A DNA stretch of 64,000 bases. It comes from Ruminococcus sp. (GTDB taxonomy: Bacteria > Bacillota > Clostridia > Oscillospirales > Acutalibacteraceae). Each line of letters starts with the position of its first letter. Position 1 is the stretch's first letter. Location of the stretch: contig SFCS01000006.1 in NCBI GenBank assembly GCA_004558485.1, positions 14,041-78,040 on the forward strand, given 5' to 3'. Made by a program: the position numbers and the translations under genes. The notes under the pieces were generated by a model, which did not search any database, was not told where the DNA came from, and saw nothing but the letters and a program-made list of their open reading frames with translations. This document shows, piece by piece, positions 13,266-32,810 of the stretch.

Positions 13266-15008
13266 TTAACGGAACTTCTTGCGGGCGGTGTAGTGCGTAT
13301 GCAGCACTTCGTGCGCCTTGTGGCTGCCGAAGCTCCCAAAGTAATCCTTGTAGATCTCGACGACCATCGGGTTCTGATGCGACTTGCGCAGCGGCATGTC
13401 GCGATCCATGTCATACAGCACCTTGGCACGCTTGGCGCGGTAGTCCTCGAAGTTGCGCACCACGGCGGGCACGATCGGCTGACCGCCGCCGTTGATGCAG
13501 CCGCCGGGGCAGCACATGATCTCAACGAAGGTCCACGGCGCCGTGCCGTCCTTGATCATGCTCATCACATGGTTGGCAGCCGTCAGACCGCTGGCGACCG
13601 CGACTTTGACCTCAAGGCCCGCGATGTTGTAGGTCGCTTCCTTGAGACCCTCCATGCCGCGCACCTCGGTGAAGTCCACAGAGCCGTTGTCCTTGCCGGT
13701 GAGCACGTCGTTTGCCGTGCGTAGCGCCGCCTCCATCACGCCGCCGGTCGCGCCGAAAATGACGGCAGCGCCGGTGTCCGCACCGAGCGGCATATCAAAC
13801 TCTTCATCCGGCAGTGCGGTGAAGTTCAGACCTGCGCGGCGGATCATGCGGGCAAGCTCACGGGTGGTGATGGAAATGTCTACATCCGGCATGCCGGCTG
13901 CGTCCTCATCTTCACGGGTGATCTCGAATTTCTTTGCGGTGCAGGGCATGACCGAAACCGACACGATGTTACGCGGGTCGATGCCGTTTTTCTCGGCATA
14001 ATAGGTTTTCAGAATAGCACCGAACATCTGCTGCGGGGATTTGCAGGTGGAAAGATTGGCGAGCTGATCGGGATAATACAGCTCCGCAAACTTCACCCAG
14101 CCGGGCGAGCAGGAAGTGATCATCGGCAGCACGCCGCCGTTCTTCACGCGGTGGACAAGCTCGGTCGCCTCCTCGACGATCGTCATGTCCGCACCGAAAT
14201 CGGTGTCAAACACCTTGTCAAAGCCCAGTCTGCGCAGCGCGGCAACCATCTTGCCTTCGCAGGGCGTGCCGATCGGCAGCCCGAATTCCTCGCCGATCGC
14301 CGCACGGACGGCGGGAGCGGTCTGCACGAGAACGATCTTGTCCGGATCGGACAGCGCCTCGAACACCTCGGCGGTGTTGTCCTTTTCGCGCAGCGCACCG
14401 GTCGGGCAGACATTGATGCACTGACCGCAGGAGACACAGGGCACATCGCCCAGCGGCTTTTCAAACGCACACGCGATGTGGGTGTCGATGCCGCGGTCGT
14501 TCGCGCCGATGACCGACACGAACTGCTGCTGACAGGCAGCGACGCAGCGGCGGCACAGGATGCACTTGTTGTTGTCGCGGATCATGTGCGGAGAGGACTC
14601 GTCGAGCGCATATTCCGGATGGAAGCCGTCATATTTGCCGTTGTCCTCCACACCGTAGTCGAGACACAGCTTCTGCAGCTCGCAGTTGGTGGAGCGCACG
14701 CAGGAAAGGCACTTTTTCTCATGTGTCGAGAGAATGAGCTCCAGCGTCGTCTTGCGGGCGGCGCGCACCTTGTCGGTGTTGGTCTGAATTTCCATGCCCT
14801 CGGCAACCGGATAGACACAGGCGGTTACAAGGCCGCGCGCACCGGTCGCTTCGACCACGCAGATACGGCAGGCGCCGATCTCGTTCATATCCTTCAAATA
14901 GCACAGCGTGGGGATCTCCACACCGGCAGCGTGAGCCGCTTCCAGAATGGTGGAGCCCTTCGGCACACTGACGGCAATGCCGTTCACTTTTACATTAACC
15001 ATATCCAT
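13266..15008 (-). CDS. hydA: [FeFe] hydrogenase catalytic subunit HydA (bifurcating HydABC type)
   Basis: N-terminal 2Fe-2S plus 4Fe-4S ferredoxin domains. H-cluster motifs TSCSPGW, MPCTAKK and ExMCCPGGCxxGGGQP present. Start at ATG 15008 after AGGAG. Confidence 0.85.
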   Translation of the reverse strand: MDMVNVKVNGIAVSVPKGSTILEAAHAAGVEIPTLCYLKDMNEIGACRICVVEATGARGLVTACVYPVAEGMEIQTNTDKVRAARKTTLELILSTHEKKCLSCVRSTNCELQKLCLDYGVEDNGKYDGFHPEYALDESSPHMIRDNNKCILCRRCVAACQQQFVSVIGANDRGIDTHIACAFEKPLGDVPCVSCGQCINVCPTGALREKDNTAEVFEALSDPDKIVLVQTAPAVRAAIGEEFGLPIGTPCEGKMVAALRRLGFDKVFDTDFGADMTIVEEATELVHRVKNGGVLPMITSCSPGWVKFAELYYPDQLANLSTCKSPQQMFGAILKTYYAEKNGIDPRNIVSVSVMPCTAKKFEITREDEDAAGMPDVDISITTRELARMIRRAGLNFTALPDEEFDMPLGADTGAAVIFGATGGVMEAALRTANDVLTGKDNGSVDFTEVRGMEGLKEATYNIAGLEVKVAVASGLTAANHVMSMIKDGTAPWTFVEIMCCPGGCINGGGQPIVPAVVRNFEDYRAKRAKVLYDMDRDMPLRKSHQNPMVVEIYKDYFGSFGSHKAHEVLHTHYTARKKFR

Positions 15009-15025: not shown

Positions 15026-16822
15026 TTAACCTTTTTTGATCGCACCGAAGTTGCAGTTCGCCAAGCAGGCACCGCACTTGATGCATTTATCCTGATGGAT
15101 GACATGCGGCTGCTTGACAGCGCCGGAGATCGCACCCACCGGGCAGTTACGGGCACACTTGGTGCAGCCCTTACATTTCTCTGCGTCAATGGTGAATTGC
15201 AGCAGATCCTTGCAGACGCCGGCGGGACATTTTTTGTCCACCACATGCGCAATGTACTCGTCGCGGAAGAATTTCAGCGTGGACAGCACGGGGTTGGGCG
15301 CCGTCTGGCCGAGACCGCACAGCGAGTTGTTTTTGATGTAATAGCACAGCTCCTCCAGCTCGTCGATGTCCTTGAGCGTGCCGTTGCCCTTGGTGATCTT
15401 GTCGAGCTTTTCAAGCAGACGCTTTGTGCCGACGCGGCAGGGCGTACATTTGCCGCAGGATTCGTCAACGGTGAATTCAAGGAAGAATTTTGCCATGTCG
15501 ACCATACAGGTGTCCTCGTCCATGACGATAAGGCCGCCCGAGCCCATCATGCAGCCGATGGCGATGAGGTTGTCATAGTCCACGGGCGTGTCGATGAGGG
15601 AAGCGGGGATACAGCCGCCGGACGGGCCGCCGGTCTGTGCCGCCTTGAACTTCTTGCCGTTCGGGATGCCGCCGCCGATGTCCTCGATGATTTCGCGCAG
15701 CGTCGTGCCCATCGGGATCTCCACAAGGCCGGTGTGCTTGATTTTGCCGCCGAGGGCAAAGACCTTGGTGCCCTTGGATTTCTCCGTGCCCATGGATGCG
15801 AACCACTCGGCGCCGCGCAGAATGATCTGCGGCACATTGGCGAAGGTCTCAACATTATTTTCAACGGTCGGGGACTGATACAGACCCTTCACCGCCGGAT
15901 ACGGCGGACGCGGGCGCGGCTCGCCGCGGTTGCCCTCGATGGAGGTCATGAGCGCGGTCTCCTCGCCGCACACGAACGCGCCGGCGCCGAGACGGATATG
16001 CAGGTCGAAGTCGAAGCCGGAATTGAAGATGTTTTTGCCGAGCAGGCCGTATTCGCGCGCCTGCTCAATGGCAATCTGCAGACGGGCAACGGCGATCGGA
16101 TACTCCGCACGGACATAAACATAGCCCTCGGTCGCGCCGATGGCATAGCCCGCGATCGCCATCGCCTCGATGACGGTGTGCGGATCGCCTTCCAGGACGG
16201 AACGGTCCATGAACGCGCCGGGGTCGCCCTCGTCGGCGTTGCAGACGACATACTTCTGCGGCGCTTTGTTCGGCGCGGTCAGCGCCCATTTTCTGCCGGT
16301 CGGGAAGCCGCCGCCGCCTCTGCCGCGCAGACCGGAGTCGGTGATCACCTTAATGACCTCCTCCGGTGTCATCTCGGTCAGCACCTTGCCCAGAGCGGCA
16401 TAGCCGTCCATGGCGATATATTCGTCGATGTTTTCGGGGTTGATGACGCCGCAGTTGCGCAGCACGACGCGGTTCTGCGTCTTGTAGAACGCGGTGTCGT
16501 TGAGGGAGACATTGCCCTCGACCGGTTCGTCCGAGCCGGTGTCGTTGTAGACAAGGCGCTCGACGATCCTGCCCTTGAGCAGATGCTCGGACACGATCTC
16601 CGGCACATCGTTTGCCGTCACGCGGCTGTAGAAGGTGCCGTCGGGATGGATGATGACGACCGGACCGAGCGCGCAGAGACCGAAGCAGCCGGTCTGCACG
16701 ATTTTGATCTCTTCGGAAAGACCGTTTTTCTCGATGGCGTCCCTGAACGCCTCCTGGATTGCTTTACTGCCCGAGGAGGTACAGCCGGTACCGCCGCAGA
16801 TCAGCACATGAGTACGAATCAT
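15026..16822 (-). CDS. hydB: NADH-binding flavoprotein subunit HydB (NuoF-like, 598 aa)
   Basis: NuoF-like FMN/NADH-binding domain, SLBB domain and C-terminal 2x[4Fe-4S] motifs. Confidence 0.85.
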   Translation of the reverse strand: MIRTHVLICGGTGCTSSGSKAIQEAFRDAIEKNGLSEEIKIVQTGCFGLCALGPVVIIHPDGTFYSRVTANDVPEIVSEHLLKGRIVERLVYNDTGSDEPVEGNVSLNDTAFYKTQNRVVLRNCGVINPENIDEYIAMDGYAALGKVLTEMTPEEVIKVITDSGLRGRGGGGFPTGRKWALTAPNKAPQKYVVCNADEGDPGAFMDRSVLEGDPHTVIEAMAIAGYAIGATEGYVYVRAEYPIAVARLQIAIEQAREYGLLGKNIFNSGFDFDLHIRLGAGAFVCGEETALMTSIEGNRGEPRPRPPYPAVKGLYQSPTVENNVETFANVPQIILRGAEWFASMGTEKSKGTKVFALGGKIKHTGLVEIPMGTTLREIIEDIGGGIPNGKKFKAAQTGGPSGGCIPASLIDTPVDYDNLIAIGCMMGSGGLIVMDEDTCMVDMAKFFLEFTVDESCGKCTPCRVGTKRLLEKLDKITKGNGTLKDIDELEELCYYIKNNSLCGLGQTAPNPVLSTLKFFRDEYIAHVVDKKCPAGVCKDLLQFTIDAEKCKGCTKCARNCPVGAISGAVKQPHVIHQDKCIKCGACLANCNFGAIKKG

Positions 16823-16839: not shown

Positions 16840-17211
16840 TTATGCCTGCCCGTTACCGATCGTATAGTCAACGACCGGCTTGCCGCCTTTTAAGTGTTCC
16901 TCAATGACGCGCGCGACCTTGTCGGCGGTCATCTTGACATAGGTCACCTTGTCCTTGCCCGCCTCAAATACCTCCACGATCGGCTCATACTGGCAAAGAC
17001 CGATGCAGCCGGTCTGCGTGACCGTGATGCTGCCGGCAAGACCCGCCGCATTCACGCCCTCGACAAACGCGTTCAGCACCGGACGCGCGCCGGCGGCAAT
17101 GCCGCAGGTCGCCATGCCGACCACCACGCGCTTTTCACCGGAATCGCTGCGCAGCGCGACCTTGTCATGCATCTTATCGCGAATTGCCTGAAGTTCTGCT
17201 AAGGTTTTCAT
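16840..17211 (-). CDS. thioredoxin-like [2Fe-2S] ferredoxin (HndB-like)
   Basis: 123-aa protein with Cys pattern (ATCGIAAG … TGCIGLC) typical of the small HndB/NuoE-like ferredoxin in hyd operons. Confidence 0.65.
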   Translation of the reverse strand: MKTLAELQAIRDKMHDKVALRSDSGEKRVVVGMATCGIAAGARPVLNAFVEGVNAAGLAGSITVTQTGCIGLCQYEPIVEVFEAGKDKVTYVKMTADKVARVIEEHLKGGKPVVDYTIGNGQA

Positions 17212-17235: not shown

Positions 17236-17790
17236 TTACTGATTTATAGACTGGTATTGCTCACGCAAATAGCCCTCAATCCATTTGAGTACCTCATAGG
17301 TGTCGAGCGGCACATCCCCCAGCACCTCCCGCAGCTGCCGCGTGTCCAGCGTGACAGTGCCGGCGTCGGTGCGATGGGAAAAGGCAAGCTCTTCTTGCGG
17401 ATGCCCCTGTATCAGGGTCAAAAGCGTCGCGGTCACATCGCCCAGAGGCATACAGTCGATGTGATCGGTGTGAAAGGTCGCGCGCACGGTCGTGCCGTGA
17501 CCGTCGGGACATTGCGCCGCCGTGCGGGAAGTGACGGTGAGCGTTCCGCCCGTCTGCTCCGCCTCCAGCTTCAGGAGCGGCAGCCCCAGCCCCACCCTGC
17601 GGGTGGTGCGGGTGGTATAAAACGGGTCGGTCACCCGACGGACGGTCTCGGCGTCCATGCCGCAGCCGTCGTCCGTAATTTCGATCGTCAGCACATTGCC
17701 CGCCTGCGTCAGCGACACGGTGATGAGCGTTGCGCCCGCCTTCACGGAATTTTCCGCAATGTCGAGAATGTTGAGCGAAAGCTCCTTCAT
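17236..17790 (-). CDS. histidine-kinase-like ATPase domain protein (HATPase_c only)
   Basis: Begins MKELSLNILDIAENS and contains a GxGxG ATP lid (DDGCGMD … GLGLPLL). Start ATG 17790 after GGGAGGGAG; the track ORF extension to 18057 is Arg-rich junk. Confidence 0.65.
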   Translation of the reverse strand: MKELSLNILDIAENSVKAGATLITVSLTQAGNVLTIEITDDGCGMDAETVRRVTDPFYTTRTTRRVGLGLPLLKLEAEQTGGTLTVTSRTAAQCPDGHGTTVRATFHTDHIDCMPLGDVTATLLTLIQGHPQEELAFSHRTDAGTVTLDTRQLREVLGDVPLDTYEVLKWIEGYLREQYQSINQ

Positions 17791-18506
17791 CGGTCTCCCT
17801 CCCGCAAGCGTTCGATGAGCCTTTTTGCCGGATCGCCGTCGGCAAGCTCCAAAGTGTTTGCCTTGTCGCGGATGTCCCACAGATAGTGCGCATCCGAGCT
17901 GATGATCACCGTCTGCGGCAGCGTCATTTTCGCTCGCAGCGGCGGCTCCTTTTCGCCGTCGTGCAGCTCGACGCAGGAAAACCGCGGCGTGTCCGGCAGC
18001 ATGCCGAGCACGGCAAGGATGCCGTTTGCCTCGCGGTCGATGTGCGCAGGATAGCACACACCGTGATATTTTGCCGCGAGCGGCACGCTCTCGTCGAGCG
18101 AAACGCCCGTCGCGTTGGAAAGCAGGTGCTCCTCAACGCCGAGAACATTGTCCGCAGCATCCGTGAGCAGCTGCTCCCCGAAGATGTCGGGGCGGTTTTT
18201 GATCCGCACCCGCCGCGTGTCGATCTCCTCGTCGAATGCCAAAGCGTCCGAGAGCGTCGGGAACAGGCAGACCATGTGGATATCCTCCGCCGTGGTCAGC
18301 TCCATCCCCGCAACGGGGATGATGCCCATTTCCGCTGCCGCCTCAAAAAACGCAGGGCAGTTGCGACAGGTGTTGTGATCCGTCAATGCCATGAGCTGCA
18401 GCCCCGCCAGCTTGCCGACGCCCGCCAGGTTGCGCGGCGTGTTGTCGTTGTCGGCGCAGGGGGACAGACAGGAATGGAGGTGCAGATCGTAATAAAAGCG
18501 GCTCAT
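17787..18506 (-). CDS. PHP domain metal-dependent phosphoesterase
   Basis: N-terminal YYDLHLHSCLSPCA and HNT motifs of the PHP superfamily. Confidence 0.65.
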   Translation of the reverse strand: MSRFYYDLHLHSCLSPCADNDNTPRNLAGVGKLAGLQLMALTDHNTCRNCPAFFEAAAEMGIIPVAGMELTTAEDIHMVCLFPTLSDALAFDEEIDTRRVRIKNRPDIFGEQLLTDAADNVLGVEEHLLSNATGVSLDESVPLAAKYHGVCYPAHIDREANGILAVLGMLPDTPRFSCVELHDGEKEPPLRAKMTLPQTVIISSDAHYLWDIRDKANTLELADGDPAKRLIERLREGDR

Positions 18507-18832
18507 GAGAGCGCCGCGTGCAGCCGCAGAGCGGTCTCATAGGCGCCATAGGTGCTCAAAAGCACATTGACGCCCTTTTCGGCGGCAAGAGCCGCCATGC
18601 CCTCGTCCGGCTGTACACCCTCCGCCAGCACCACACAGGCGGCGTCACACAGCGCCGCCACCGCCGGCACATTGCGGTTGGACATAATGGTGATCCAGAC
18701 ATTGCCCTCGCGGGCACGCCCCATCACCCAACTCAAAAGATCGCCGATATACACGCCGTCGGCAACGCGCTCCGGCTGCGGCAGCGCCGCAGCGGAAAAT
18801 CCCGAAAGCGCCGCAAGCTCACGCACCGTCAT
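18503..18832 (-). CDS. DRTGG domain protein
   Basis: About 110-aa protein with a DRTGG-like core. Start at the second ATG (18832), 10 nt after GAGGAGG. Confidence 0.5.
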   Translation of the reverse strand: MTVRELAALSGFSAAALPQPERVADGVYIGDLLSWVMGRAREGNVWITIMSNRNVPAVAALCDAACVVLAEGVQPDEGMAALAAEKGVNVLLSTYGAYETALRLHAALS

Positions 18833-20090
18833 GGGCATCCTCCTCTTTTTCGCGCCGCGACAGCACACAGCCGTCCGCTGACGCTCTGCCGCACACCACA
18901 TCCTCCGCAAAGGCGCGGCAGGTGGGCGCGCCGCAGGCACCGCAGTCGATGCCGGGCAGGCTGCCCCTGAGCGCCTGAATGTCGGCTAACATCCGCATGG
19001 ACTGTGCCATGCTGCTTGAAAGCTGTGAGATCGGCTGATATTCCGGCATCTCCTCAAAGAAATAGGCGGCGGGGATATACTGCTCATCGGGAGACAGCAG
19101 GTTCTGCGACACCGGCAGATACCGCCGCAGCGTTTGCATGCGCGCTTTGGCGATGAATGGATCCTGAATATTCAGCACACCGCCGACGCAGCCGCCCGTG
19201 CAGGCGTTGAGCTCGACGAACTCCAGCGGCGGGATGTTGCCGTTTTCGATCTGATCGAGCACATGGATGATGTGCTCGATGCCGTCCGCCGCCAGATAGC
19301 GGTCGTTGAACAGCGCGGTCGCCTCACCGCCGGTCGTCGCCCAGCCGATGCCGATCATGCCCGACTCGGAAAGCGAGGCTTCCGGCGCGGTGTGGGACAT
19401 GGCGCCGATCAGCTCAAAATAGATGTCGCTGACCGAAACGACCGCATCCACCTGACTTTTGTAGCCCGCAAAGCCGTTTTTCACATAGCTCACTTTCGCG
19501 GGACACGGCGAAATGAAGCAAACGCCGATGTCGTCGGGGGAAAGCTCCGGGTGCTGCCTTTGCGCCCTCTCGCGGGCAAGCCTTGCCGCGATCTCCATCG
19601 GGGGCAGCATCTGCAAAAGGTTTTCCTTCAATGACGGAAACCGCAGAGCGATCAGCCGCACCACAACGGGGCACGCCGAGCTGATGATCGGTTTTTTGAT
19701 CCCTTCGGTGTTCAGATACAGGCGGGTGTATGCGGACACCAGCTCCGCCGCCTGCGACACCTCATACACATCGTCGAAACCGATGCGCAAAAGACCGCCG
19801 AGCACACAATCCACATCATCGAGATTGTCAAACTGCCCATACAAAGCGGGCGCGGGAAGAGCGATCTTCCATTTGAAGCGCTGCATATCCGACAGCTTGT
19901 TGCACACCGCACGCTTTGCCTTTTGCTGACAGGTGCGGATGCATTCACCGCAATCGATGCAGCGGTTCTCCTTGATGGTTGCGTGGCCGTCCCGCACACG
20001 GATCGCCTCGGTCGGGCAATGCCGGAGGCAGGTGGTGCAGCCGGTGCACTTCTCGGCGTCTAAGAACACGGAATGTGCGTATGTATGCAT
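18819..20090 (-). CDS. HydS-like sensory [FeFe] hydrogenase homologue (2x[4Fe-4S] + divergent H-cluster domain + C-terminal 4-Cys motif)
   Basis: N-terminal CxxCxxCxxxCP pair, then degenerate H-cluster motifs (SSACPVVV, ISPCPAKV, ELNACTGGCVGG). C-terminal CGACGAPTCRAFAEDVVCGRASADGC. No PAS domain. Confidence 0.7.
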   Translation of the reverse strand: MHTYAHSVFLDAEKCTGCTTCLRHCPTEAIRVRDGHATIKENRCIDCGECIRTCQQKAKRAVCNKLSDMQRFKWKIALPAPALYGQFDNLDDVDCVLGGLLRIGFDDVYEVSQAAELVSAYTRLYLNTEGIKKPIISSACPVVVRLIALRFPSLKENLLQMLPPMEIAARLARERAQRQHPELSPDDIGVCFISPCPAKVSYVKNGFAGYKSQVDAVVSVSDIYFELIGAMSHTAPEASLSESGMIGIGWATTGGEATALFNDRYLAADGIEHIIHVLDQIENGNIPPLEFVELNACTGGCVGGVLNIQDPFIAKARMQTLRRYLPVSQNLLSPDEQYIPAAYFFEEMPEYQPISQLSSSMAQSMRMLADIQALRGSLPGIDCGACGAPTCRAFAEDVVCGRASADGCVLSRREKEEDAHDGA

Positions 20091-20123
20091 AAACAGCCCT
20101 CCGTCCGTGCGAAGCGGCACTCC

Positions 20124-20555
20124 TTATGCCGTGGGAATGTCCACGCGCATCAGGATGTCGGTGCCTTCTCCGACACGGGATCGGATCTCCATATGATCCG
20201 TATAGCGTTTCATATTGGGTAACCCCATACCGGCGCCGAAGCCCAAAGAACGGACGACGTCCGGCGCGGTGGAAAAGCCTGCCTGCATGGCCTGCTCAAT
20301 GTCTGCAATGCCGGGACCGTGATCCGAAAGCGCGATCTCGATCTTGTCTTCATCCACCCGCACCTCGGCGATGCCGCCGCCCGCGTGGATGACCATGTTG
20401 ATCTCGCCCTCGTACATGGCGATGGAAACGCGCCGGATAATCTCCGGCGGCAGTCCCAGCTGGCGCAGATTTTTCTTGACCTGCACCGACGCCTGCCCCG
20501 CGGAGGTGAAATCCTCTCCGCCCACATCAAAACGAAAAGTAAGCGTCTCAGCCAT
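20124..20555 (-). CDS. RsbW/SpoIIAB-like anti-sigma-type Ser protein kinase (HATPase_c_2)
   Basis: About 143 aa. Motifs EGEINMVIHA and DHGPGI…GFGAGMGL match the GHKL kinase fold of partner-switching kinases. Confidence 0.6.
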   Translation of the reverse strand: MAETLTFRFDVGGEDFTSAGQASVQVKKNLRQLGLPPEIIRRVSIAMYEGEINMVIHAGGGIAEVRVDEDKIEIALSDHGPGIADIEQAMQAGFSTAPDVVRSLGFGAGMGLPNMKRYTDHMEIRSRVGEGTDILMRVDIPTA

Positions 20556-20556
20556 C

Positions 20557-20913
20557 TTATCGCCTCGCAGTCTTGTTGCCGACAAGACCGTTGCTGTAGA
20601 GAATGCCGCACGCCTCATACATCCGCTTGTCGGTCGCCATGAGCACGATGCCGGCGTCCTGCGCCAGACGGATCATTTCCTCCGTCGGGCGTTTCTCGCG
20701 CACGAAAACGATGCAGATCATGTCCATCATTTCCGCGGTGCGGATGACCTGTGCGTTGACAAGGCCGGTGAGCAGCACCGCCTGATCCTTCACATATGCC
20801 AACACATCGCTCATCATGTCGCTGCCGCAGGCGGAATAGACATGGTCGCCAAGGCGCTCCTCGCAGACAAGAACATCGGCTTGCAAAAGCTCTTTAATGG
20901 TACAGATCTTCAT
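20557..20913 (-). CDS. DRTGG domain protein (second copy)
   Basis: 118-aa DRTGG-like protein (…VLLTGLVNAQVIRTAEMMD…) immediately upstream of the kinase gene. Confidence 0.5.
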   Translation of the reverse strand: MKICTIKELLQADVLVCEERLGDHVYSACGSDMMSDVLAYVKDQAVLLTGLVNAQVIRTAEMMDMICIVFVREKRPTEEMIRLAQDAGIVLMATDKRMYEACGILYSNGLVGNKTARR

Positions 20914-20934: not shown

Positions 20935-21432
20935 TTATGCGCCGTATTTTTTCAGAATGTCCGGCACATCGTCTGCGGTCAGTCTGCCGAACACCTCATC
21001 GTTGATGGTGAGCACCGGCGCAAGACCGCAAGCACCGATGCAGCGGCAGGCGGTGAGGGAAAATCTGCCGTCGGGGGTACATTCGTCCGCGCCGATGCCG
21101 AGAATTTCCTGAATTTTGTTGAACACATCGCCGGAGCCCTTGACATAGCACGCTGTGCCCAGGCAGACCGAGATGTTGTAGTTGCCCTTCGGGGACAGCG
21201 CAAACTGCGCATAGAAGGTTGCTACTCCGTAGACCTTTTCGAGCGGCACGCCCATGCCGTCCGCGATCATCTGCTGTACCTCGATGGGGAGATACCCGTA
21301 GATGCCCTGCGCCTCCTGCATGACGCCCATCAGCCGACTTTTGTCGTGCTTGTTGGCATCAATGACCTTCTTTAGTGCCTCTGCCTGCGCAGCGGTACCC
21401 TTGAAGGGCAGATTGCTGATTTTTTTCTGCAT
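20935..21432 (-). CDS. hydC: NuoE-like [2Fe-2S] subunit HydC
   Basis: NuoE family signature (CLGTACYVKG … CRCIGACGLAP). Start ATG 21432 after AGGAGG. Confidence 0.8.
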   Translation of the reverse strand: MQKKISNLPFKGTAAQAEALKKVIDANKHDKSRLMGVMQEAQGIYGYLPIEVQQMIADGMGVPLEKVYGVATFYAQFALSPKGNYNISVCLGTACYVKGSGDVFNKIQEILGIGADECTPDGRFSLTACRCIGACGLAPVLTINDEVFGRLTADDVPDILKKYGA

Positions 21433-21593: not shown

Positions 21594-21610
21594 CCCATTT
21601 GGCACAGTTT

Positions 21611-22075
21611 TTATGCGTTTCGTTCCTTAAGCGCGCGCTCTGCCTCCCGTTTCATGTCCCGACGGGCGGCATCCTCGCGCTTGTCATAGAGCTTTTTGCC
21701 GCGGCAAAGCCCGACCTGCACCTTCATGAGCGAGCCCTTGCGATAAAGCGACAGCGGAATGAGCGTCAGCCCCTTCTGCTTTGACAGCCCGTAAAGCCGC
21801 AGAATTTCCCGTTTGTGCAGCAACAGCCGCCGCACGCGCAGCGGGTCGCGGTTAAAAATGTTGCCGTGGTCATAGGGAGAGATGTGCATGCCGTTTATGA
21901 ACATTTCCCCTTCGACGACGCTGCACCAGGCGTCCTTCAGGTTGACGCCGCCCGCGCGGATGGCTTTCACCTCTGTGCCGCACAGCTCAATGCCCGCCTC
22001 GATGCTTTCCTCGACGAAATATTCATGATACGCCTTTTTGTTGGCGGCGATCGTTTGTGTCGCTTGTTGTTTCAT
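21611..22075 (-). CDS. smpB: SsrA-binding protein
   Basis: SmpB family (…NKKAYHEYF…GTEVKA…LLLHKRE…). Start ATG 22075. The upstream 147 residues of the track ORF are antisense junk. Confidence 0.85.
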   Translation of the reverse strand: MKQQATQTIAANKKAYHEYFVEESIEAGIELCGTEVKAIRAGGVNLKDAWCSVVEGEMFINGMHISPYDHGNIFNRDPLRVRRLLLHKREILRLYGLSKQKGLTLIPLSLYRKGSLMKVQVGLCRGKKLYDKREDAARRDMKREAERALKERNA

Positions 22076-22086
22076 GGCGGTTCTCC

Positions 22087-22686
22087 TTACAGCTCCGAGC
22101 GCCCCTCCAGCGAGCGGCGCAGCGTGACCTCGTCCGCATATTCCAAATCGCCGCCCACGGGGATGCCGTAGGCAAGGCGGGTGACCTTGATGGGAAAGGG
22201 TTTCAGCAGCCGCGCGATATACATGGCGGTCGCCTCCCCCTCGACGGTGGGATTGGTCGCCATCACGACCTCCTTGACCGCCTCGTCGGTCAGGCGGGTG
22301 AGAAGGGGGCGGATGCGGATGTCGTCGGGGCCGACCCCGTCCATGGGCGAGATCGTGCCGTGCAGCACGTGGTACAGCCCGCGGTATTCCCTTGTGCGCT
22401 CCAGCGCTGCGACATCCTGCGGATCCTCCACCACACAGATGACCGAGCGATCGCGGTCTGCCGCTGCGCAAACGGGGCAAAGCGCTTTGTCGGTCAGGTT
22501 GCAGCAAACGCTGCATTCGTGGATGTTTTCGCGCGCCTCGCGGATGGCGGAGACAAATGCCGCCGCCTTTTCCTCCGGCTGACGCAGCAGAAAAAAGGCA
22601 AGCCTCCCGGCGGATTTGTGTCCGATGCCGGGCAGCGTTTCGAGCTGCTCCACCAGCCGTTCAAGCGGCGCTACCGTGTATCCCAT
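22087..22686 (-). CDS. recR: recombination protein RecR
   Basis: HhH motif LPGIGHKSAGRLAFFLL, C4 zinc finger CSVCCNLTDKALCPVC and Toprim domain. Confidence 0.9.
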   Translation of the reverse strand: MGYTVAPLERLVEQLETLPGIGHKSAGRLAFFLLRQPEEKAAAFVSAIREARENIHECSVCCNLTDKALCPVCAAADRDRSVICVVEDPQDVAALERTREYRGLYHVLHGTISPMDGVGPDDIRIRPLLTRLTDEAVKEVVMATNPTVEGEATAMYIARLLKPFPIKVTRLAYGIPVGGDLEYADEVTLRRSLEGRSEL

Positions 22687-22694
22687 ACAGCACC

Positions 22695-23042
22695 TCAGAA
22701 CAGCCCCGGCACATTCAAGCCGCCCGCGATGCGGGACATCTGCTGTTCGGCGTCCTCGCTTGCCTTGCGGCTGGCCTCATTGACGGCGGCGATGACCAGA
22801 TCGGCGAGCATTTCGGCATCGTCGGGATCGATGACCTCCGGCTCGATTTTGAGCGCGGTGATCTCGTGCTTGCCGTTCACGGTCGCTTCGACCGCGCCGC
22901 CGCCCGCCGTAGCGGTATAGACGGAGGCTTGCAGCTCCTCCTGCTTTGCAGCAGCCTCCTCCTGCATCTTCTGTGCCTGGCGGATCATGCTTTGCAGGTT
23001 GCCCGGACCGCCGCCCATTCCCTGCGGTAATCTTGCTTTCAT
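22695..23042 (-). CDS. ybaB: YbaB/EbfC nucleoid-associated protein
   Basis: 115-aa protein with the characteristic NLQSMIRQAQKMQE N-terminus. Conserved dnaX-ybaB-recR order. Confidence 0.85.
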   Translation of the reverse strand: MKARLPQGMGGGPGNLQSMIRQAQKMQEEAAAKQEELQASVYTATAGGGAVEATVNGKHEITALKIEPEVIDPDDAEMLADLVIAAVNEASRKASEDAEQQMSRIAGGLNVPGLF

Positions 23043-23058
23043 AGTGTATATCCCCTTT

Positions 23059-24693
23059 TTAGGTTTGTATATCCACGCCGCGTTCCCGATTTTGACGGAT
23101 GAAGGCGGTCAGCGGATCGTTCGGCGTGTCCGCCGACGGTTTTTTCTTGATGCCGATGCGATAGGTGTTCCCCGTAACTTGCTTGATGGTGTTCACCAGA
23201 ATTTGCTTGTTGCCGTCACGGGTGACGAGCGCACGGAAGGTGTCATTGTCGGTGCAGACAAGCACGATGTCGCCGCGCAGCAGCGCCGTCGAGCCGACAA
23301 GCACGCCGCAGAGCGGGGGACATGCCGTTTCGAGCGCCTCCACCACCTCGCCCCAGGAAGAAAACGGCACTTCCGCATTTTCCGCCGCCGGTGCTACCGG
23401 TGCTGCCGGGGCTGCCGGTGCTGCCGGGGCTGCCGGTGCGGGTGCGGGAGCAGGTTCCTGCGCGGGCGCAGATTCTTGCGTCGGTGCGGGCTCTTGCATC
23501 GGTGCGGGCTCTTGCGTCGGTGCCGGAGCAGACGCCTGCGTGGGAGCTGACATCGGTCGGTTGTTTTCCAGTGCCGCTACACGGCGGGTGAGGGCGGCAA
23601 GGTCGTCGGACAATTCCGGACGGCACAGCCGCAAGACCGCCATCTCCATCTCCACGCGGCGGGACACGCCTCCGCGCAGACGGTCGAGCGTCTCCTGCAG
23701 CACCGCCAGGTGATGCAGCACCGTCGCCATATCGGTGGCGGCAGCGGCAGCTCTCAGCTGCTCCAGCTCCTCGGCAGAGACCACGACAAGCGCCGTCGGA
23801 TCCTTGACGGTCTTGACGATCATGATGTCGCGGCAATGCTCCACCCATTCGGCGCACAGCCGTTCCATGTCCTTTGACCCGCGATAGAGCGTGTCGATGA
23901 CGGCAAGCGCCTTTGCGGTGTCGCCGGCGGCGACTGCCGCAGACAATTCGAAAATGTGCGCCCTCCCCGCCAGTCCCGCGGCGGCGGTCACGACCTCGGC
24001 GGTCACCTCGCGGGAATGGGATACGCACTGATCGAGCAGGGAAAGCGCGTCCCGCATCGCGCCGTCGGACAGCCGCGCCAAAAGCAGCGCCGCGTCATCG
24101 GTGACGGAAAAGCCCTCCTTGTCCGCCACAAAGCGGATGCGCGCCGCGATGTCGGCGGGGGTGATGCGGGTGAAATCAAACCGCTGACAGCGGGACAAAA
24201 TCGTTGCGGGCAGCTTGTGCACCTCGGTGGTCGCCAGGACAAAAATGACATGCGCGGGCGGCTCTTCCAAGGTTTTGAGCAGCGCGTTGAACGCACCCGC
24301 AGACAGCATGTGCACCTCGTCGATGATATACACGCGGTATTTTGCGGCGGCGGGGGTGAAGTTCACTTCCTCCCGCAGCTCGCGGATGCTGTCGACGCCG
24401 TTGTTTGACGCGGCGTCGATCTCCACCACATCCAAAATCGAGCCGTCGTCGATGCCGCGGCAGATCTCACACGCGTTGCAGGGATCGCCGTCCACGGGGG
24501 ACAGACAGTTGACTGCCTTGGCAAGAATTTTGGCACAGGTGGTCTTTCCCGTACCGCGACAGCCGGTGAACAGATAGGCATGCGCCGGTGTGCCGTTTTT
24601 GATCTCGTTGCGCAGCGCGGCAGTCACCGTTTCCTGTCCGCAGACATCGGAAAAGGTCTGCGGGCGATATTTGCGATACAGCACCTGATACAA
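23059..24693 (-). CDS. dnaX: DNA polymerase III subunits gamma/tau
   Basis: LYRKYRPQTF, Walker A GTGKTT and zinc module CxxC…CxxC. Start TTG 24693, 8 nt after AAAGGAG. Internal Pro/Ala-rich tandem-repeat linker. Confidence 0.85.
   Translation of the reverse strand: MYQVLYRKYRPQTFSDVCGQETVTAALRNEIKNGTPAHAYLFTGCRGTGKTTCAKILAKAVNCLSPVDGDPCNACEICRGIDDGSILDVVEIDAASNNGVDSIRELREEVNFTPAAAKYRVYIIDEVHMLSAGAFNALLKTLEEPPAHVIFVLATTEVHKLPATILSRCQRFDFTRITPADIAARIRFVADKEGFSVTDDAALLLARLSDGAMRDALSLLDQCVSHSREVTAEVVTAAAGLAGRAHIFELSAAVAAGDTAKALAVIDTLYRGSKDMERLCAEWVEHCRDIMIVKTVKDPTALVVVSAEELEQLRAAAAATDMATVLHHLAVLQETLDRLRGGVSRRVEMEMAVLRLCRPELSDDLAALTRRVAALENNRPMSAPTQASAPAPTQEPAPMQEPAPTQESAPAQEPAPAPAPAAPAAPAAPAAPVAPAAENAEVPFSSWGEVVEALETACPPLCGVLVGSTALLRGDIVLVCTDNDTFRALVTRDGNKQILVNTIKQVTGNTYRIGIKKKPSADTPNDPLTAFIRQNRERGVDIQT
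23381..23545 (-). repeat. in-frame tandem nucleotide repeats encoding a PAP/QEPAPT low-complexity linker inside dnaX
   Basis: Repeats (ccggtgctgccggggctg)x2 and (cttgcRtcggtgcgggct)x3 encode APTQEPAPMQEPAPTQESAPAQEP and (AAP)n. Confidence 0.7.
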
Positions 24694-24704
24694 GGCTGTC
24701 ACTC

Positions 24705-24849
24705 CTTTGCAGAAAAATACCGTAGGCACTCCGGCATACGGACGGACAGGCGGACTGCGGCGCACGGAGACAGCTGCTTAATGCTGCTCGGTTCCCCGCC
24801 TGACATGGTTCACAGCGCACCGTCGCGCAGGACCCATCCGTCCGTATGC
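24705..24849 (-). ncRNA. ffs: signal recognition particle RNA (small 4.5S-like form) with its own promoter
   Basis: Minus-strand promoter TTGACT-17-TATAAT. Long terminal helix (ccggcatacggacgg / ccgtccgtatgccgg). Domain IV motif AUGUCAGGCGGGGAACCGAGCAGC matches GUCAGG-NCCGGAAGGAAGCAGC. Ends in UAUUUUU just before the dnaX RBS. Confidence 0.75.
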
Positions 24850-24909
24850 CGGAATGTATACGGCATCTCTTATTATATGTGTACGGCGGCGAAAAGTCAA
24901 GAGCGCCGC

Positions 24910-24940
24910 GAAAAAATAAGGCTGCGCAAAGCGCAGCCTT
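24910..24940 (-). terminator. rpsT terminator
   Basis: Hairpin AAGGCTGCGCAAAGCGCAGCCTT plus T-tract on the minus strand. Confidence 0.65.
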
Positions 24941-24951
24941 ACAGATTGTCC

Positions 24952-25203
24952 TCACGCATTCGCTTTTTTAGCGAGGGCGGACTTTTTCCTTGCAGCCGTA
25001 TTCTTGTGCAGGAGACCCTTTGCAGCAGCCTGATCGATCTTCTTGACGGCGGCTTTCAAGGCTTCTTCCTTGTTCTCACCGGCAGCGATGGCGGCGTTCG
25101 CGTTCTTGATCTCGGTTTTCAGAGCGGAGCGGGCAGCTTTGTTGCGGGCGGCCTTCACCGCGTTGACCTTCACGCGCTTCTTGGCGGATTTAATATTGGG
25201 CAT
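24952..25203 (-). CDS. rpsT: 30S ribosomal protein S20
   Basis: MPNIKSAKKRVKV… S20 family. ATG 25203, 7 nt after AGGAGG. Confidence 0.9.
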   Translation of the reverse strand: MPNIKSAKKRVKVNAVKAARNKAARSALKTEIKNANAAIAAGENKEEALKAAVKKIDQAAAKGLLHKNTAARKKSALAKKANA

Positions 25204-25344
25204 GGTCACACCTCCTAAACAGCAAATTCAAATCACGCACACAATATAGTAGCACCCTTTTTCAAAAAAAGCAACTGTTTTTTTCGGAATATCCCGATTT
25301 TTTTCACGGATACTAGTGAAAACGAGAAAAAAAGAGGGAGAACT

Positions 25345-26226
25345 ATGCAACTGCGCACCGATCTGGCGCTCGAAGCGGTCGCCATGGCGGGGGAAACACT
25401 GGGGGAGGCGGATCGCACGCTGTTCGAGCAGGAGCGGGCGGGCATCACCGTCACCCGCCTCACGGTCAAAAGCGAAAGGGCGGCGGCGGTGTATGACAAG
25501 CCGTGCGGAGAATATGTGACGCTGGCGCTGCCGCCGCTCTCGGACGACGAAAAAAAGCTGCTCGAGGCGGCGACGCTGGCAGCGGAGGAGATTGGCCGCT
25601 TTTTGCCAAAGGAGGGGACGGTGCTGACGGTGGGGCTGGGCAACCGCGCCATCACGCCGGACGCGCTCGGTCCGCGCGCGGCGGATATGGTGCTTGCCAC
25701 CCGCCACATACAGGGTGAATTTGCCCGCAGTGTGGGGCTCTCCGACCTGCGCCCGTCGGCGGTGGTCGTGCCGGGGGTGCTCGGACAGACCGGCACGGAG
25801 AGCGGGGAGCTGGTGCGTGGGGTGTGCGGCGTGGTGCGCCCCGCCGCCGTCATCGCCGTCGATGCGCTTGCCGCCCGCAGCGTGGCGAGGCTCGGCTGCA
25901 CGGTGCAGGTATCGGACACCGGCATTGCCCCGGGTGCGGGCGTCGGCAACCATCGACTGCCGCTGTGTGCGAAAACGCTCGGCGTGCCGGTCATTGCGGT
26001 CGGCGTGCCGACGGTGGTGGACGCGGCGACGGTCGCCGCCGATTGCGGCGCGGACGCGGAAACGGTCGAGCGCATTGCGCCTGCGGCAAGACGCCTGGTG
26101 GTGACGCCGCGGGAGATCGATCTGCTCATCGGCAGAGCCGCCCGCCTTGTCGCGGCGGCGATCAACGCCGCCCTGCAGCCCGACTATGCACCGCTCGAGC
26201 TGATTTCTCTGGCGCTGGATTCATAA
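25345..26226 (+). CDS. gpr: germination protease (GPR endopeptidase)
   Basis: Aligns to B. subtilis Gpr (RTDLA…, VGLGNRAITPDALGP, LVTRH). Conserved rpsT-gpr neighbourhood. Confidence 0.85.
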   Translation: MQLRTDLALEAVAMAGETLGEADRTLFEQERAGITVTRLTVKSERAAAVYDKPCGEYVTLALPPLSDDEKKLLEAATLAAEEIGRFLPKEGTVLTVGLGNRAITPDALGPRAADMVLATRHIQGEFARSVGLSDLRPSAVVVPGVLGQTGTESGELVRGVCGVVRPAAVIAVDALAARSVARLGCTVQVSDTGIAPGAGVGNHRLPLCAKTLGVPVIAVGVPTVVDAATVAADCGADAETVERIAPAARRLVVTPREIDLLIGRAARLVAAAINAALQPDYAPLELISLALDS

Positions 26227-26245
26227 AATCCGGCGCACACACCAT

Positions 26246-26283
26246 GCAAATTTCCCTTGCCGTCCCCTGACGATGGGCGGCAA
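26246..26283. terminator. bidirectional terminator between gpr and mnmE
   Basis: Hairpin CCCTTGCCG…CGGCAAGGG with flanking T/A runs. Confidence 0.5.
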
Positions 26284-26325
26284 GGGGAATTTGACGGAGG
26301 ATGGGAAGCTTTGTTTCCCGTCCTC

Positions 26326-27699
26326 CTACTTTCCGACACAAAATCTGCGGAATACCTCGTCCACCACCGCCTCGGTGGTGCGCTCTCCCGTGAGGGACAA
26401 AATGGCGGCGACGGCATCGTCGATGCACACCGACACCGCATCCGGCGTCATGCCGATCGCCATGGCGTTTTGCGCCTCCCTGACGGCGGCAAGCGCATTT
26501 TCGGCGCATACACGCTGTCGTTCGGTCTGCAAAAGCGCCGTGTCCGGCTGCAGGCGGCAAACGCCGGTAACCTTCTCCACCGCCGCCCTCAGGCGGTCGG
26601 CGCCGTCTCCCGTTTTTGCCGACAGGAGCACGACGGCGGGCACGGCAGCGGCGATCTCGTCGACCTCGATCACCGTGCCGATATCCGTTTTATTGATGAC
26701 GGCGATCGCGGTTTCATTTTTCAGAGAGGCAAGCAGCGCGCGATCCTCCGCCGTGAGCGGTGCGCCGCCGTCGAACACCGCCAGCACCAGCGCCGCGTGT
26801 GCCATACGGCGGCGTGCCTTTTCGACACCGATCGCCTCAACGGCGTCGCCCGTGTCCCGCAGCCCCGCCGTGTCGGACAGGCGCAGCGTGACCTCGCCCA
26901 GCCGCACCGTTTCCTCCACGATGTCGCGGGTCGTGCCCGCGATGGGGGTGACGATGCTGCGCTCGCAGCCGGCAAGCAGGTTCATGAGCGTGGATTTGCC
27001 GACATTGGGGCTGCCGACGATAACGGTATCGATGCCCTCACGCAGCACCCGCCCCGCGTCGAAATCGGCGAGCAGCGCCGCAAGCGTCTCTTCGGCGTCG
27101 GCAAGGGTGGCGGACAGTGCCGCATCCGAAAGGTCGGGGATGTCGTCGTCGGGATAGTCAACAAAGGCGGAAAACTGCGCCGCCGTCGCAAGCAGGGCGC
27201 TTTTCACGCCGTCAAGACGGCGAGAAACGCTCCCTTCCTTTGCGGCGAGGGCGGTCTTGGCGGCAAGACTGCCGTCGGCGGCAATGAGCGACATGACCGC
27301 CTCCGCGCCGGAAAGATCGAGCTTGCCGTTTTCAAAGGCGCGGCGGGTAAATTCCCCCGCCTCTGCGGGACGCGCGCCCGCTGCATAGAGCGCGCGCAGC
27401 GTGCGGCGCAGCAGATACACGCCGCCGTGCAGCGACAGCTCCACGGTGTCCTCGCCGGTGTAGCTGTGCGGCGCGCGGAAAACGAGCGCCACACATTCGT
27501 CGATGACGCCCTCTTTGTCCGCCACATGCCCGAAGGCGGCGCGCCAGCCGCCGAGGGCGGCAAGCGGCTTTCCCGACACCGCACGGAAAACGCGGTCGGC
27601 AGTGCCGATCGCGTCGCTGCCCGAAATGCGCAAAACGCCCAGTCCCGCGGGCGCGGCGGGGGTGGACAGCGCAGCGATGGTATCCCTTTGCAAATTCAC
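26326..27699 (-). CDS. mnmE: tRNA uridine-5-carboxymethylaminomethyl(34) synthesis GTPase
   Basis: MnmE N-terminal domain, G-domain (GSPNVGKSTL, DTAG, NKTD) and C-terminal CxGK. GTG start 27699 after AAAGAGAGGG. Confidence 0.9.
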   Translation of the reverse strand: MNLQRDTIAALSTPAAPAGLGVLRISGSDAIGTADRVFRAVSGKPLAALGGWRAAFGHVADKEGVIDECVALVFRAPHSYTGEDTVELSLHGGVYLLRRTLRALYAAGARPAEAGEFTRRAFENGKLDLSGAEAVMSLIAADGSLAAKTALAAKEGSVSRRLDGVKSALLATAAQFSAFVDYPDDDIPDLSDAALSATLADAEETLAALLADFDAGRVLREGIDTVIVGSPNVGKSTLMNLLAGCERSIVTPIAGTTRDIVEETVRLGEVTLRLSDTAGLRDTGDAVEAIGVEKARRRMAHAALVLAVFDGGAPLTAEDRALLASLKNETAIAVINKTDIGTVIEVDEIAAAVPAVVLLSAKTGDGADRLRAAVEKVTGVCRLQPDTALLQTERQRVCAENALAAVREAQNAMAIGMTPDAVSVCIDDAVAAILSLTGERTTEAVVDEVFRRFCVGK

Positions 27700-28948: not shown

Positions 28949-28950
28949 GG

Positions 28951-31450: not shown

Positions 31451-31453
31451 ATA

Positions 31454-32800: not shown

Positions 32801-32810
32801 ATATGCCCCC

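Follow-up and report, generated by a model that had tools for sequence, protein, structure and literature searches.

The recognition of group D (M2e) [FeFe] hydrogenases dates from about 2010, and biochemical work on them from 2019. Incorporation of the H-cluster, low rates of turnover, increased affinity for H2, and tolerance of CO have been established solely for TamHydS (PMC8163306), the enzyme of the thermophile Thermoanaerobacter mathranii, which also displays a stabilised Hred state and an H2-induced change in secondary structure. Its sensory role is described as putative even so. A Ser or Thr at the Met353 position has been named as a hallmark of M2e (PMC8163306), and the alternative proton pathway of TamHydS, comprised of E252, E289, S249, and D265, is specific to group D and abolishes activity when mutated (PMC10407848). 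M2e enzymes are encoded upstream of trimeric bifurcating hydrogenases and near kinases (PMC3561251).

The locus described here lies in a window of 64,000 nucleotides (assembly GCA_004558485.1, contig SFCS01000006.1) from a Ruminococcus sp. and, in contrast to the thermophilic host of TamHydS, belongs to a gut/rumen lineage of Clostridia with a GC content of ∼60%. The protein at its centre, HydS, represents no novel type but is an orthologue of the characterised TamHydS, embedded in an operon whose composition is conserved in related bacteria.

Domain architecture and family assignment of HydS

The hydS gene (18819..20090, minus strand, as are all features given below) encodes a putative sensory [FeFe] hydrogenase of 423 aa, identified from its ORF, Pfam matches, identity with TamHydS, and an AF2 model. 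The longest ORF at this site (18819..20120) is GTG-initiated and would encode 433 aa. The GTG at 20120 was rejected as a start codon because the Shine-Dalgarno sequence abuts it and leaves no usable spacing, whereas the ATG at 20090 is properly spaced, with a GGAGG ribosome-binding site ∼7 nt upstream; database homologues are likewise 423 aa long. The exact sequence is already deposited in public databases, where close relatives carry the labels “ferredoxin” (a near cluster mate), “4Fe-4S binding protein,” and “RnfB.”

The domain and motif matches of HydS are far beyond chance. Pfam recognises a 230-residue Fe_hyd_lg_C domain (E 9e-29), a PF04060 “FeS” domain (E 8e-13), and two Fer4 domains, the last of which form an N-terminal F-domain (19929..20048) with cysteines C15, C18, C21, C25, C44, C47, C50, and C54 for two [4Fe-4S] clusters. 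These eight residues, together with the remaining accessory-cluster cysteines (twelve in all) and the four H-cluster cysteines, are invariant or near-invariant across sets of 42 and 107 relatives. The AF2 model is predicted with high scores (pLDDT 93.4, pTM 0.91), and a fold search with it returned [FeFe] hydrogenases only, at a TM score of ∼0.7 to solved structures. No solved structure from group C or D was found, and the best sequence match in the PDB is of the CbA5H type (E 2e-16).

Comparison by BLASTP with TamHydS (WP_013150113) yields 45% identity over 414 colinear residues, spanning the full length of the protein (E 4e-125), using a TamHydS sequence taken from the supplementary information of PMC6984386 that contains small OCR errors near residues 27-34 (one residue dropped and one duplicated). 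The two proteins share length class and domain order. On this basis HydS appears to be a full-length TamHydS orthologue and an ordinary member of group D (M2e), an assignment that rests on signature residues and TamHydS identity, with group C set apart by published criteria rather than by alignment. The family is large and uniform, with more than 8000 matches and 415 clusters at 50% identity (E<1e-30), mostly of 410-460 aa.

The H-cluster motifs are altered in a manner typical of the group, their core sequences reading SSACPVV, SPCPAK, and ELNACTGGC in place of the canonical TSCCPxW, MPCxxK, and ExMxCxxGC. Motif L1 (ISSACPVVV, residues 136-144, 19659..19685) provides the ligand C140, kept in 105 of 107 relatives, and places A139 at the position of CpI Cys299, which is occupied by A, S, F, or T across the family. 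Motif L2 (ISPCPAKV, residues 193-200, 19491..19514) provides C196 and places S194 at the Met353 position, where T or S is found in 90 of the 107 relatives. Motif L3 (VELNACTGGCVGGV, residues 292-305, 19176..19217) provides both C297 and C301, with N295 at the Met497 position and E293 corresponding to E289 of TamHydS. All four cysteines align with the L1, L2, and L3 cysteines of solved hydrogenases. As judged by alignment, therefore, HydS retains every H-cluster cysteine and has lost the proton-relay cysteine and both framing methionines. Residues T253, E256, and D269 (19284..19334) align with S249, E252, and D265 in the alternative route for protons in TamHydS. None of the 121 close sequences (the window protein and 120 relatives) lacks E256, D269, or E293.

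Residues A139, S194, E256, E293, T253, and D269 thus match the group D signature (PMC8163306, PMC10407848), and by sequence HydS appears to agree with every criterion for group D (M2e) given in the literature. The likeness to TamHydS extends to the replacement of Cys299 by Ala and of Met353 by Ser and to conserved interdomain Arg, Glu, and Asp residues (R31, R33, E396, and D397). The proteins differ at the Met497 position, which is Asn here and Leu in TamHydS and is poorly conserved according to the literature, and at two positions whose electrostatic residues group D conserves: K35 is replaced by His (H36), and D403 by Gly (G407) with an Asp one residue earlier (D406).

Catalytic group A enzymes (CpI, DdHydAB, and the HydA of HydABC) share the H-domain fold and the four H-cluster ligands. 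HydS, conversely, is only 17-23% identical to them, has degenerate L1, L2, and L3 motifs, is missing the canonical proton pathway, and has no small-subunit-like C-terminus. Scores against the group A/B models fall far below their cutoffs (79.7 bits for TIGR02512, cutoff 405.95; 127.9 bits for TIGR04105, cutoff 450), which indicates that HydS is not a catalytic group A or B enzyme.

The original prediction, a HydS-like protein at 18819-20090 with L1-L3 motifs present but altered and no PAS domain, agrees with these results: the coordinates are exactly those of the ATG-initiated ORF, all of the motifs it quoted were located with their four H-cluster cysteines kept, and Pfam finds no PAS domain. 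A group A classification with conserved L1-L3, which it had named as speaking against it, was not found. Its account of the Met497 position needed correction, as this residue is Asn295, Leu294 being the “x” of the motif. The proposed sensory character is broadly right, but the likeness to group C gives way to membership in group D; the suggestion that the protein binds H2 but turns it over poorly fits the low rates and increased affinity measured for TamHydS (PMC8163306).

A C-terminal cluster without a PAS domain

The C-terminal PF04060 domain of HydS contains the motif DCGACGAPTCRAFAEDVVCGRASADGC (residues 382-408, 18867..18947; supported by Pfam and by conservation), in which C383, C386, C391, and C408 reproduce the Cx2Cx4Cx16C spacing of a [4Fe-4S] cluster exactly, as in TamHydS. 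Acidic residues surrounding the motif (D382, E396, and D397) are conserved. The four-Cys motif reported in the original prediction is thus borne out as a conserved Cx2Cx4Cx16C, although the segment holds five cysteines. The fifth, C400, is extra relative to TamHydS and lineage-specific, being restricted to the 23 sequences nearest to HydS, whereas most relatives have K, R, Q, or L at this position.

In PDB comparisons the domain matches RnfB and the N-terminus of CFeSP (9eri_B and 4djd_C), and the same motif is found in the PF04060 domains of RnfB and AcsC, the large subunit of the corrinoid Fe-S protein. In HydS, however, it is appended to the H-domain after a long helix, and, as a further difference from RnfB and AcsC, the TamHydS cluster of this type is left unreduced by the enzyme's own substrate. 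No PAS family was matched by Pfam in HydS at E<=0.01, and C408 is followed by just 15 residues.

The HydS of R. albus has the same C-terminal cluster together with a downstream PAS domain. According to the TamHydS papers, so does the group C model TmHydS. Because TmHydS carries both, the motif is not a substitute for PAS, as had been supposed; the PAS domain is simply absent here. Nor is the cluster “extra,” being an ordinary family feature common to groups C and D. The further proposal that it acts as an electron relay is contradicted for TamHydS, in which H2 fails to reduce the C-terminal cluster and the C379A variant has wild-type-like activity (PMC13104023). The domain more likely serves as a structural or interaction module than as a relay.

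The hydS operon and its relatives

The hydS cassette and the genes for HydABC form one translationally coupled operon. It is headed by hydC (20935..21432, start codon uncertain), assigned by synteny and Pfam (2Fe-2S_thioredx, E 1e-48) to a NuoE-like [2Fe-2S] subunit, which is followed by a gene for a 118-aa DRTGG-domain protein, DRTGG1 (20557..20913), at 23.3 bits just below the 25.2-bit Pfam cutoff. Next is a 143-aa SpoIIAB-like GHKL ATPase and putative Ser kinase (20124..20555; HATPase_c_2, E 3e-12), whose sequence shows recognisable N, G1, and G2 boxes; it scores 62.5 bits against TIGR01925, below the cutoff, and matches anti-sigma F factor in the PDB (E 6e-8).

Downstream of hydS, start and stop codons overlap in a chain through the genes for a second DRTGG protein, a PHP protein, and HK2. 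The 109-aa DRTGG2 (18503..18832; Pfam DRTGG, 31 bits) begins 14 nt within the end of hydS, and the gene for the PHP-family metal-dependent phosphoesterase (17787..18506, 239 aa; E 4e-9, PDB 3e0f) shares ATGA overlaps with both adjoining genes. HK2 (17236..17790, 184 aa) has an ATPase domain of the histidine kinase type (HATPase_c, E 6e-17) but no DHp/His domain, and its PDB matches are the catalytic domains of KinB and ZraS.

The remaining genes encode a small thioredoxin-like [2Fe-2S] ferredoxin resembling HydD (16840..17211; Pfam, NCBIfam), the NuoF-like FMN/NADH subunit HydB (15026..16822; Complex1_51K and NADH_4Fe-4S), and HydA (13266..15008), located 3.7 kb downstream of hydS. HydA, which scores 887.7 bits against NF040763 (cutoff 765) and matches A. 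woodii HydA1 (PDB 7q4v) with an E of 5e-216, is the catalytic group A [FeFe] hydrogenase of a HydABC-type bifurcating complex. Its own motifs have an extra Cys in L3 (MCCPGGC) and a Ser in L1 (TSCSPGW); compensation of the latter by the former was considered and rejected, as relatives carry G, A, or C at that place in L3. The TamHydS gene likewise lies upstream of a trimeric bifurcating hydrogenase and adjoins an HK-like ATPase, though the leading position of the NuoE gene in the present operon is a point of difference.

Searches of the cassette with Pfam and NCBIfam revealed neither a sigma factor nor a response regulator, and likewise no STAS domain or protein that binds DNA; among the ten operon proteins, Pfam found neither STAS nor PP2C. 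A scan of ten large ORFs elsewhere in the window detected no genes for the HydEFG maturases (13 of 49 ORFs of at least 300 aa were scanned in all). Maturase genes are often unlinked to hydrogenase genes, so this result is uninformative.

The order NuoE-DRTGG-HATPase_c_2-HydS-DRTGG-PHP-HATPase_c-Fdx-NuoF-HydA is intact in all sufficiently long loci among 80 related ones, recovered in a contig scan that reached fairly close relatives (58-76% identity, the T. mathranii locus not among them). More distant contexts, taken from contigs encoding individual HydS homologues, retain the core DRTGG/HATPase_c_2/HydS/DRTGG/PHP/HATPase_c at 30-46% identity, where it precedes HydABC, Rnf, or a NuoEF+molybdopterin (Fdh-like) enzyme; the cassette also occurs with no adjoining redox complex. 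Organisms that carry this cassette include C. thermocellum (Cthe_0335-0342), Caldicellulosiruptor bescii (Athe_1292-1299), and Thermoanaerobacter. DRTGG1 is kept upstream of HydS in the 80 close loci and in most of the distant ones.

Natural fusions of HydS-DRTGG, DRTGG-HydS, and HATPase_c_2-HydS were also identified, DRTGG2 being joined in other lineages to the C-terminus of HydS, and the HydS-DRTGG fusion P0181 was modelled confidently by AF2 (pLDDT 93.3, pTM 0.83). Longer relatives of 515-607 aa were considered as PAS-bearing group C proteins and rejected, as they are DRTGG or HATPase_c_2 fusions. A search confined to one literature library returned no paper naming DRTGG together with hydrogenases, and the TamHydS literature as late as 2026 describes the partners of this enzyme as unknown.

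Competing readings and a proposed role in H2 sensing

The database labels suggest a plain ferredoxin or RnfB-like electron carrier without an H-cluster, and the PF04060 and Fer4 motifs are indeed common to RnfB. This reading has next to no credibility given the 230-residue Fe_hyd_lg_C domain, the conservation of its four H-cluster cysteines, the predicted hydrogenase fold, and an orthologue, TamHydS, that assembles the H-cluster and turns over H2. Somewhat more can be said for a group C (M2f) sensor like those of R. albus and T. maritima that has merely lost its PAS domain. Group C proteins (T. maritima HydS, R. albus HydS, and Thermoanaerobacterium HfsB) share the overall plan, with an N-terminal pair of [4Fe-4S] clusters, an H-domain without the Cys299 relay, and a C-terminal Cx2Cx4Cx16C cluster, and their genes, too, lie near those of catalytic group A hydrogenases as well as kinases or phosphatases; group D has been described as their nearest relative (PMC8163306). 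It is nonetheless very improbable.

HydS ends 15 residues past its last cluster Cys, lacking the PAS domain that is the defining feature of group C (M2f), and PAS was found in none of the 150 50%-identity representatives inspected among the matches listed. The Ser at Met353 and the alternative proton pathway are reported to be specific to group D (PMC8163306, PMC10407848), while TmHydS has Gly and Ser at the Met353 and Met497 positions and a different proton pathway. The neighbours here are PHP, DRTGG, and GHKL ATPase proteins rather than the serine phosphatase (hfsC) reported in the group C-type hfs operon, and no canonical sensor kinase is among them.

A slow catalytic hydrogenase or electron-input module, serving HydABC, Rnf, or Fdh as a ferredoxin-linked H2 valve, is a more serious competitor, albeit an improbable one. 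TamHydS interconverts H+ and H2 reversibly near the thermodynamic potential (PMC8163306), all cofactor ligands and a dedicated, activity-essential proton pathway are conserved, and across lineages hydS shares operons with Fd/NADH-linked complexes of three different kinds. Against this, the published rates of TamHydS are low (PMC8163306). The invariant companions of HydS, some of them fused to it, are of signalling type (GHKL ATPases, DRTGG, and PHP) rather than redox carriers, and the cassette can exist without a neighbouring redox complex. Also counted against this reading, the hydrogenase purified from Caldanaerobacter reportedly consists of HydA-D only. The explanation that best accounts for these observations jointly, with a probability of roughly 85%, is that HydS is a group D TamHydS orthologue within a putative H2-sensing cassette that would tune the downstream Fd/NADH complex.

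By analogy with TamHydS, HydS matured by HydEFG would bind H2, split it slowly, and stabilise a reduced state of the H-cluster, with electrons reaching the N-terminal clusters only. Synteny and natural fusions suggest that the resulting redox or conformational state may be read by the DRTGG and GHKL-ATPase proteins and reset by the PHP phosphoesterase, and that the ambient partial pressure of H2 could in this way determine how much of the downstream Fd/NADH-balancing complex is made or how active it is. That complex would be HydABC in the present operon and, in other lineages, Rnf or an Fdh-like enzyme.

The DRTGG, ATPase, and PHP neighbours are likely candidates for the signalling partners of HydS. 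A small SpoIIAB-like GHKL ATPase encoded upstream and a phosphoesterase within the cassette recall SpoIIAB/RsbW partner switching, but the operon has DRTGG and PHP where STAS, PP2C, and a sigma factor would be, and the resemblance is one of analogy only. That the cassette is the group D signal-transduction pathway, a partner-switch-like phospho- or nucleotide-relay coupled to H2 with DRTGG in the place of STAS and PHP in that of PP2C, is accordingly a tentative proposal, to which we assign somewhat less than even odds.

The hydS gene alone adds little to what is known of group D, and the interest of the locus lies in its gene context. The conserved, translationally coupled neighbours and the natural fusions nominate concrete partner proteins for H2 sensors that are devoid of PAS domains. 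If the proposed circuit is correct, it would govern how Clostridia of the gut and rumen apportion their fermentative electrons to H2 or to reduced products, and would be relevant to interspecies H2 transfer and methane formation.

The hydS gene and its family

The gene under study lies at 18819-20090 on the minus strand, as the original prediction placed it, and encodes a 423-aa protein (HydS). The mechanical ORF extends upstream to a GTG at 20120 (433 aa), a start that was rejected because this codon directly abuts its putative ribosome-binding site and HydS database homologues are 423 aa long; the ATG at 20090, by comparison, is favored by a GGAGG ribosome-binding site ∼7 nt upstream. Every motif quoted from the initial reading was recovered on the minus strand, namely the H-cluster signatures L1 (19659-19685), L2 (19491-19514) and L3 (19176-19217) and the C-terminal cysteine motif (18867-18947). 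Pfam searches identify two 4Fe-4S ferredoxin motifs (residues 18-68), a [FeFe] hydrogenase large-subunit domain (residues 86-314, E = 9e-29) and the PF04060 "putative Fe-S cluster" domain (residues 388-419, E = 8e-13), and detect no PAS domain. HydS scores 79.7 against the NCBIfam model for group A and 127.9 against that for group B1, far below the respective cutoffs of 406 and 450. An AlphaFold2 model computed from an alignment of 42 diverse relatives has high confidence (pLDDT 93.4, pTM 0.91), and the structures that match it best are all [FeFe] hydrogenases (TM ∼0.7, 17-23% identity). No solved structure of a group C or D enzyme was found, and the best PDB sequence match to HydS has an E-value of 2e-16.

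The exact 423-aa sequence is already present in NCBI and ENA, where a cluster mate is labeled "MAG: ferredoxin [Clostridia bacterium]". More than 8000 proteins were matched in a database clustered at 90% identity, every one with this Pfam architecture, and there are 415 clusters at 50% identity (E < 1e-30), mostly of 410-460 aa. Among genomes, the closest matches are Acutalibacteraceae, Oscillospiraceae and Ruminococcaceae MAGs from the gut and rumen (58-76% identity).

Assignment to group D

Group D, or subclass M2e, is represented by the HydS of Thermoanaerobacter mathranii (TamHydS) and is marked by a two-cluster domain at the N-terminus, an H-domain without the Cys299 proton relay, Ser or Thr in place of Met353, a poorly conserved Met497 position, and a C-terminal Cx2Cx4Cx16C motif with no PAS domain; its genes lie upstream of those for a trimeric, bifurcating hydrogenase of group A and adjoin a histidine-kinase-like ATPase (PMC8163306; PMC3561251). 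A proton pathway exclusive to this group, E252-E289-S249-D265, was demonstrated by mutagenesis (PMC10407848). By BLASTP, the window protein shares 45% identity with TamHydS over 414 colinear residues (E = 4e-125), using a sequence taken from the supplement of PMC6984386 that carries minor OCR errors near residues 27-34.

Residues were compared in an alignment of 107 sequences (the window protein, TamHydS and 105 representatives of 50%-identity clusters) and in a second alignment of 42 sequences, and are numbered as in the window protein. The H-cluster cysteines C140, C196, C297 and C301 are invariant or nearly so in both alignments, and the Cys299, Met353 and Met497 positions (CpI numbering) are occupied by A139, S194 (T or S in 90 of 107 relatives) and N295. 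The TamHydS proton pathway has its counterparts in E256, E293, T253 and D269, and E256, D269 and E293 are invariant in 121 close sequences (the window protein and 120 relatives). The C-terminal motif corresponds to C383, C386, C391 and C408, and R31, R33, E396 and D397 match TamHydS R30, R32, E392 and D393, residues highlighted as interdomain salt bridges (PMC13104023). The protein departs from TamHydS only in minor ways: His36 takes the place of K35 and Gly407 that of D403, with Asp406 adjoining, and there is an additional Cys400. The window protein has the full set of cofactor ligands, together with the proton pathway of group D and the hydrogenase fold, and its sequence places it in group D (M2e) with a probability of about 95%. 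It is a new and uncharacterized addition to a group that is known and under active study, within a widespread family that already has a name.

The expectation of a HydS-like protein with degenerate motifs and poor H2 turnover was broadly right and fits what has been measured for TamHydS, namely low rates, a higher affinity for H2 and a stabilized Hred state (PMC8163306). Its "group C-like" label was one step off, as the protein has no M2f-defining PAS domain and its signature residues are of the group D type. Describing a four-Cys motif in place of a PAS domain misread the comparison, since group C enzymes carry the same C-terminal cluster followed by the PAS domain (PMC8163306). The quoted CGACGAPTC...C...C comprises the canonical four-Cys motif and a fifth cysteine, Cys400 (18891-18893, minus strand), that is specific to a lineage: Cys is confined to the 23 closest sequences (at least ∼93% identity) and gives way elsewhere to K/R/Q/L, the next tier of relatives having K or R. 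Sequences bearing it often have Gly for the conserved Asp preceding the last cluster ligand, and together these substitutions may represent a lineage-specific change of the cluster environment. The proposed role of this cluster as an extra [4Fe-4S] relay is contradicted by the data on the orthologue TamHydS, in which H2 does not reduce the C-terminal cluster and activity stays wild-type-like in the C379A variant, leading its authors to conclude that signaling is unlikely to involve the redox state of this cluster (PMC13104023).

A conserved cassette of signaling-type proteins

In order of transcription, the minus-strand operon encodes a NuoE-like HydC (20935-21432), a DRTGG protein (20557-20913), a SpoIIAB-like HATPase_c_2 protein with readable N, G1 and G2 boxes (20124-20555; PDB match to the anti-sigma F factor SpoIIAB, E = 6e-8), HydS, a second DRTGG protein (18503-18832), a PHP protein resembling metal-dependent phosphoesterases that keeps the HxH motif (17787-18506), a HATPase_c protein resembling histidine-kinase catalytic domains but lacking the His domain (HK2; 17236-17790), a small [2Fe-2S] ferredoxin (16840-17211), a NuoF-like HydB (15026-16822) and a group A HydA (13266-15008; NF040763, 888 bits). 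Across 17787-18835 on the minus strand the genes are tightly joined: the end of hydS overlaps the start of the second DRTGG gene by 14 nt, a GGAGG lies within the coding sequence of hydS, and ATGA overlaps join DRTGG2 to PHP and PHP to HK2, which indicates translational coupling of hydS, DRTGG2, PHP and HK2. Pfam detects no STAS, PP2C, response-regulator or DNA-binding domain in the cassette, and the window ORFs that were scanned include no HydEFG maturase gene.

The L1 motif of HydA (13266-15008, minus strand) reads TSCSPGW, with Ser at the CpI cluster-ligand position Cys300, as in A. woodii HydA1 (PDB 7q4v) and 41/41 HydA homologues from the related loci (L001-L080); its L3 motif reads EIMCCPGGC. 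The extra L3 cysteine was rejected as a compensating ligand because its position is not conserved (G, A or C among relatives). The flanks (21600-34616) have the look of a chromosomal housekeeping region from a spore-forming member of the Clostridia: NCBIfam confirms SpoIIP (27503-28948) and LepA (32811-34616), and SmpB-, RecR-, YbaB-, DnaX-, RpsT- and spore-protease-like ORFs were recognized by eye from translations only. In the DnaX-like ORF (23059-24765, minus strand), a low-complexity stretch rich in Pro, Ala and Gln, QEPAPxQEPAP...PAAPAAPAAPAAP, separates the conserved ATPase part at the N-terminus from the C-terminal part.

When the ten operon proteins were searched by tblastn against 80 related loci, gene order was the same wherever the contig was long enough, with one variant (L078) in which NuoE is relocated behind PHP. 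Distant group D loci (30-46% HydS identity) keep the core cassette, while the downstream machine differs. NuoE follows DRTGG-HATPase_c_2-HydS-DRTGG-like-PHP-like in L090 and HydS-DRTGG-PHP in L081, which is cut at its 5' end and begins at HATPase_c_2; NuoE/NuoF and a molybdopterin (formate-dehydrogenase-like) enzyme follow in L082, and an Rnf complex in two lineages (L083 and L088/L089). The six-gene cassette stands alone in L091, and L085/L086 hold only the DRTGG-HATPase-HydS trio. Linkage to hydrogenases is not a fixed property of the HydS cassette. In some distant loci it has no adjoining redox complex, and once lies beside CheW and GGDEF genes. A CBS domain is attached to the upstream ATPase in L082 and L088, which hints at an input from adenine nucleotides. 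Among longer family members, Pfam reveals natural fusions of HydS-DRTGG (P0168, P0181, P0273, P0289), DRTGG-HydS (P0186, P0233) and HATPase_c_2-HydS (P0185), none with a PAS domain. HydS occurs in conserved synteny, is fused to signaling-type proteins in some longer family members, and is translationally coupled to its neighbors.

A possible regulatory role

A regulatory rather than catalytic role for HydS is somewhat the more probable. By analogy with TamHydS, the protein would bind H2 with relatively high affinity and turn it over slowly, stabilizing the reduced H-cluster; H2 would reduce an N-terminal cluster, leave the C-terminal cluster unreduced and induce a change in secondary structure. 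A more tentative model, to which we give slightly less than even odds, is that the DRTGG proteins and the SpoIIAB-like ATPase sense this H2-dependent state through direct contact, that a phosphorylation or nucleotide-dependent switch follows and is reset by the PHP enzyme, and that the switch adjusts the complex balancing Fd and NADH whose genes lie downstream, acting either on transcription, by way of a sigma factor encoded elsewhere, or post-translationally.

It was already stated in general terms in 2010-2012 that M2e genes are located close to kinases and bifurcating hydrogenases (PMC3561251), and the interaction partners of TamHydS were still described as unknown in 2026 (PMC13104023). 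No paper combining DRTGG proteins with hydrogenases was found in the literature searched, and the explicit cassette, together with its natural fusions, is the sole part of these findings that goes beyond that literature.
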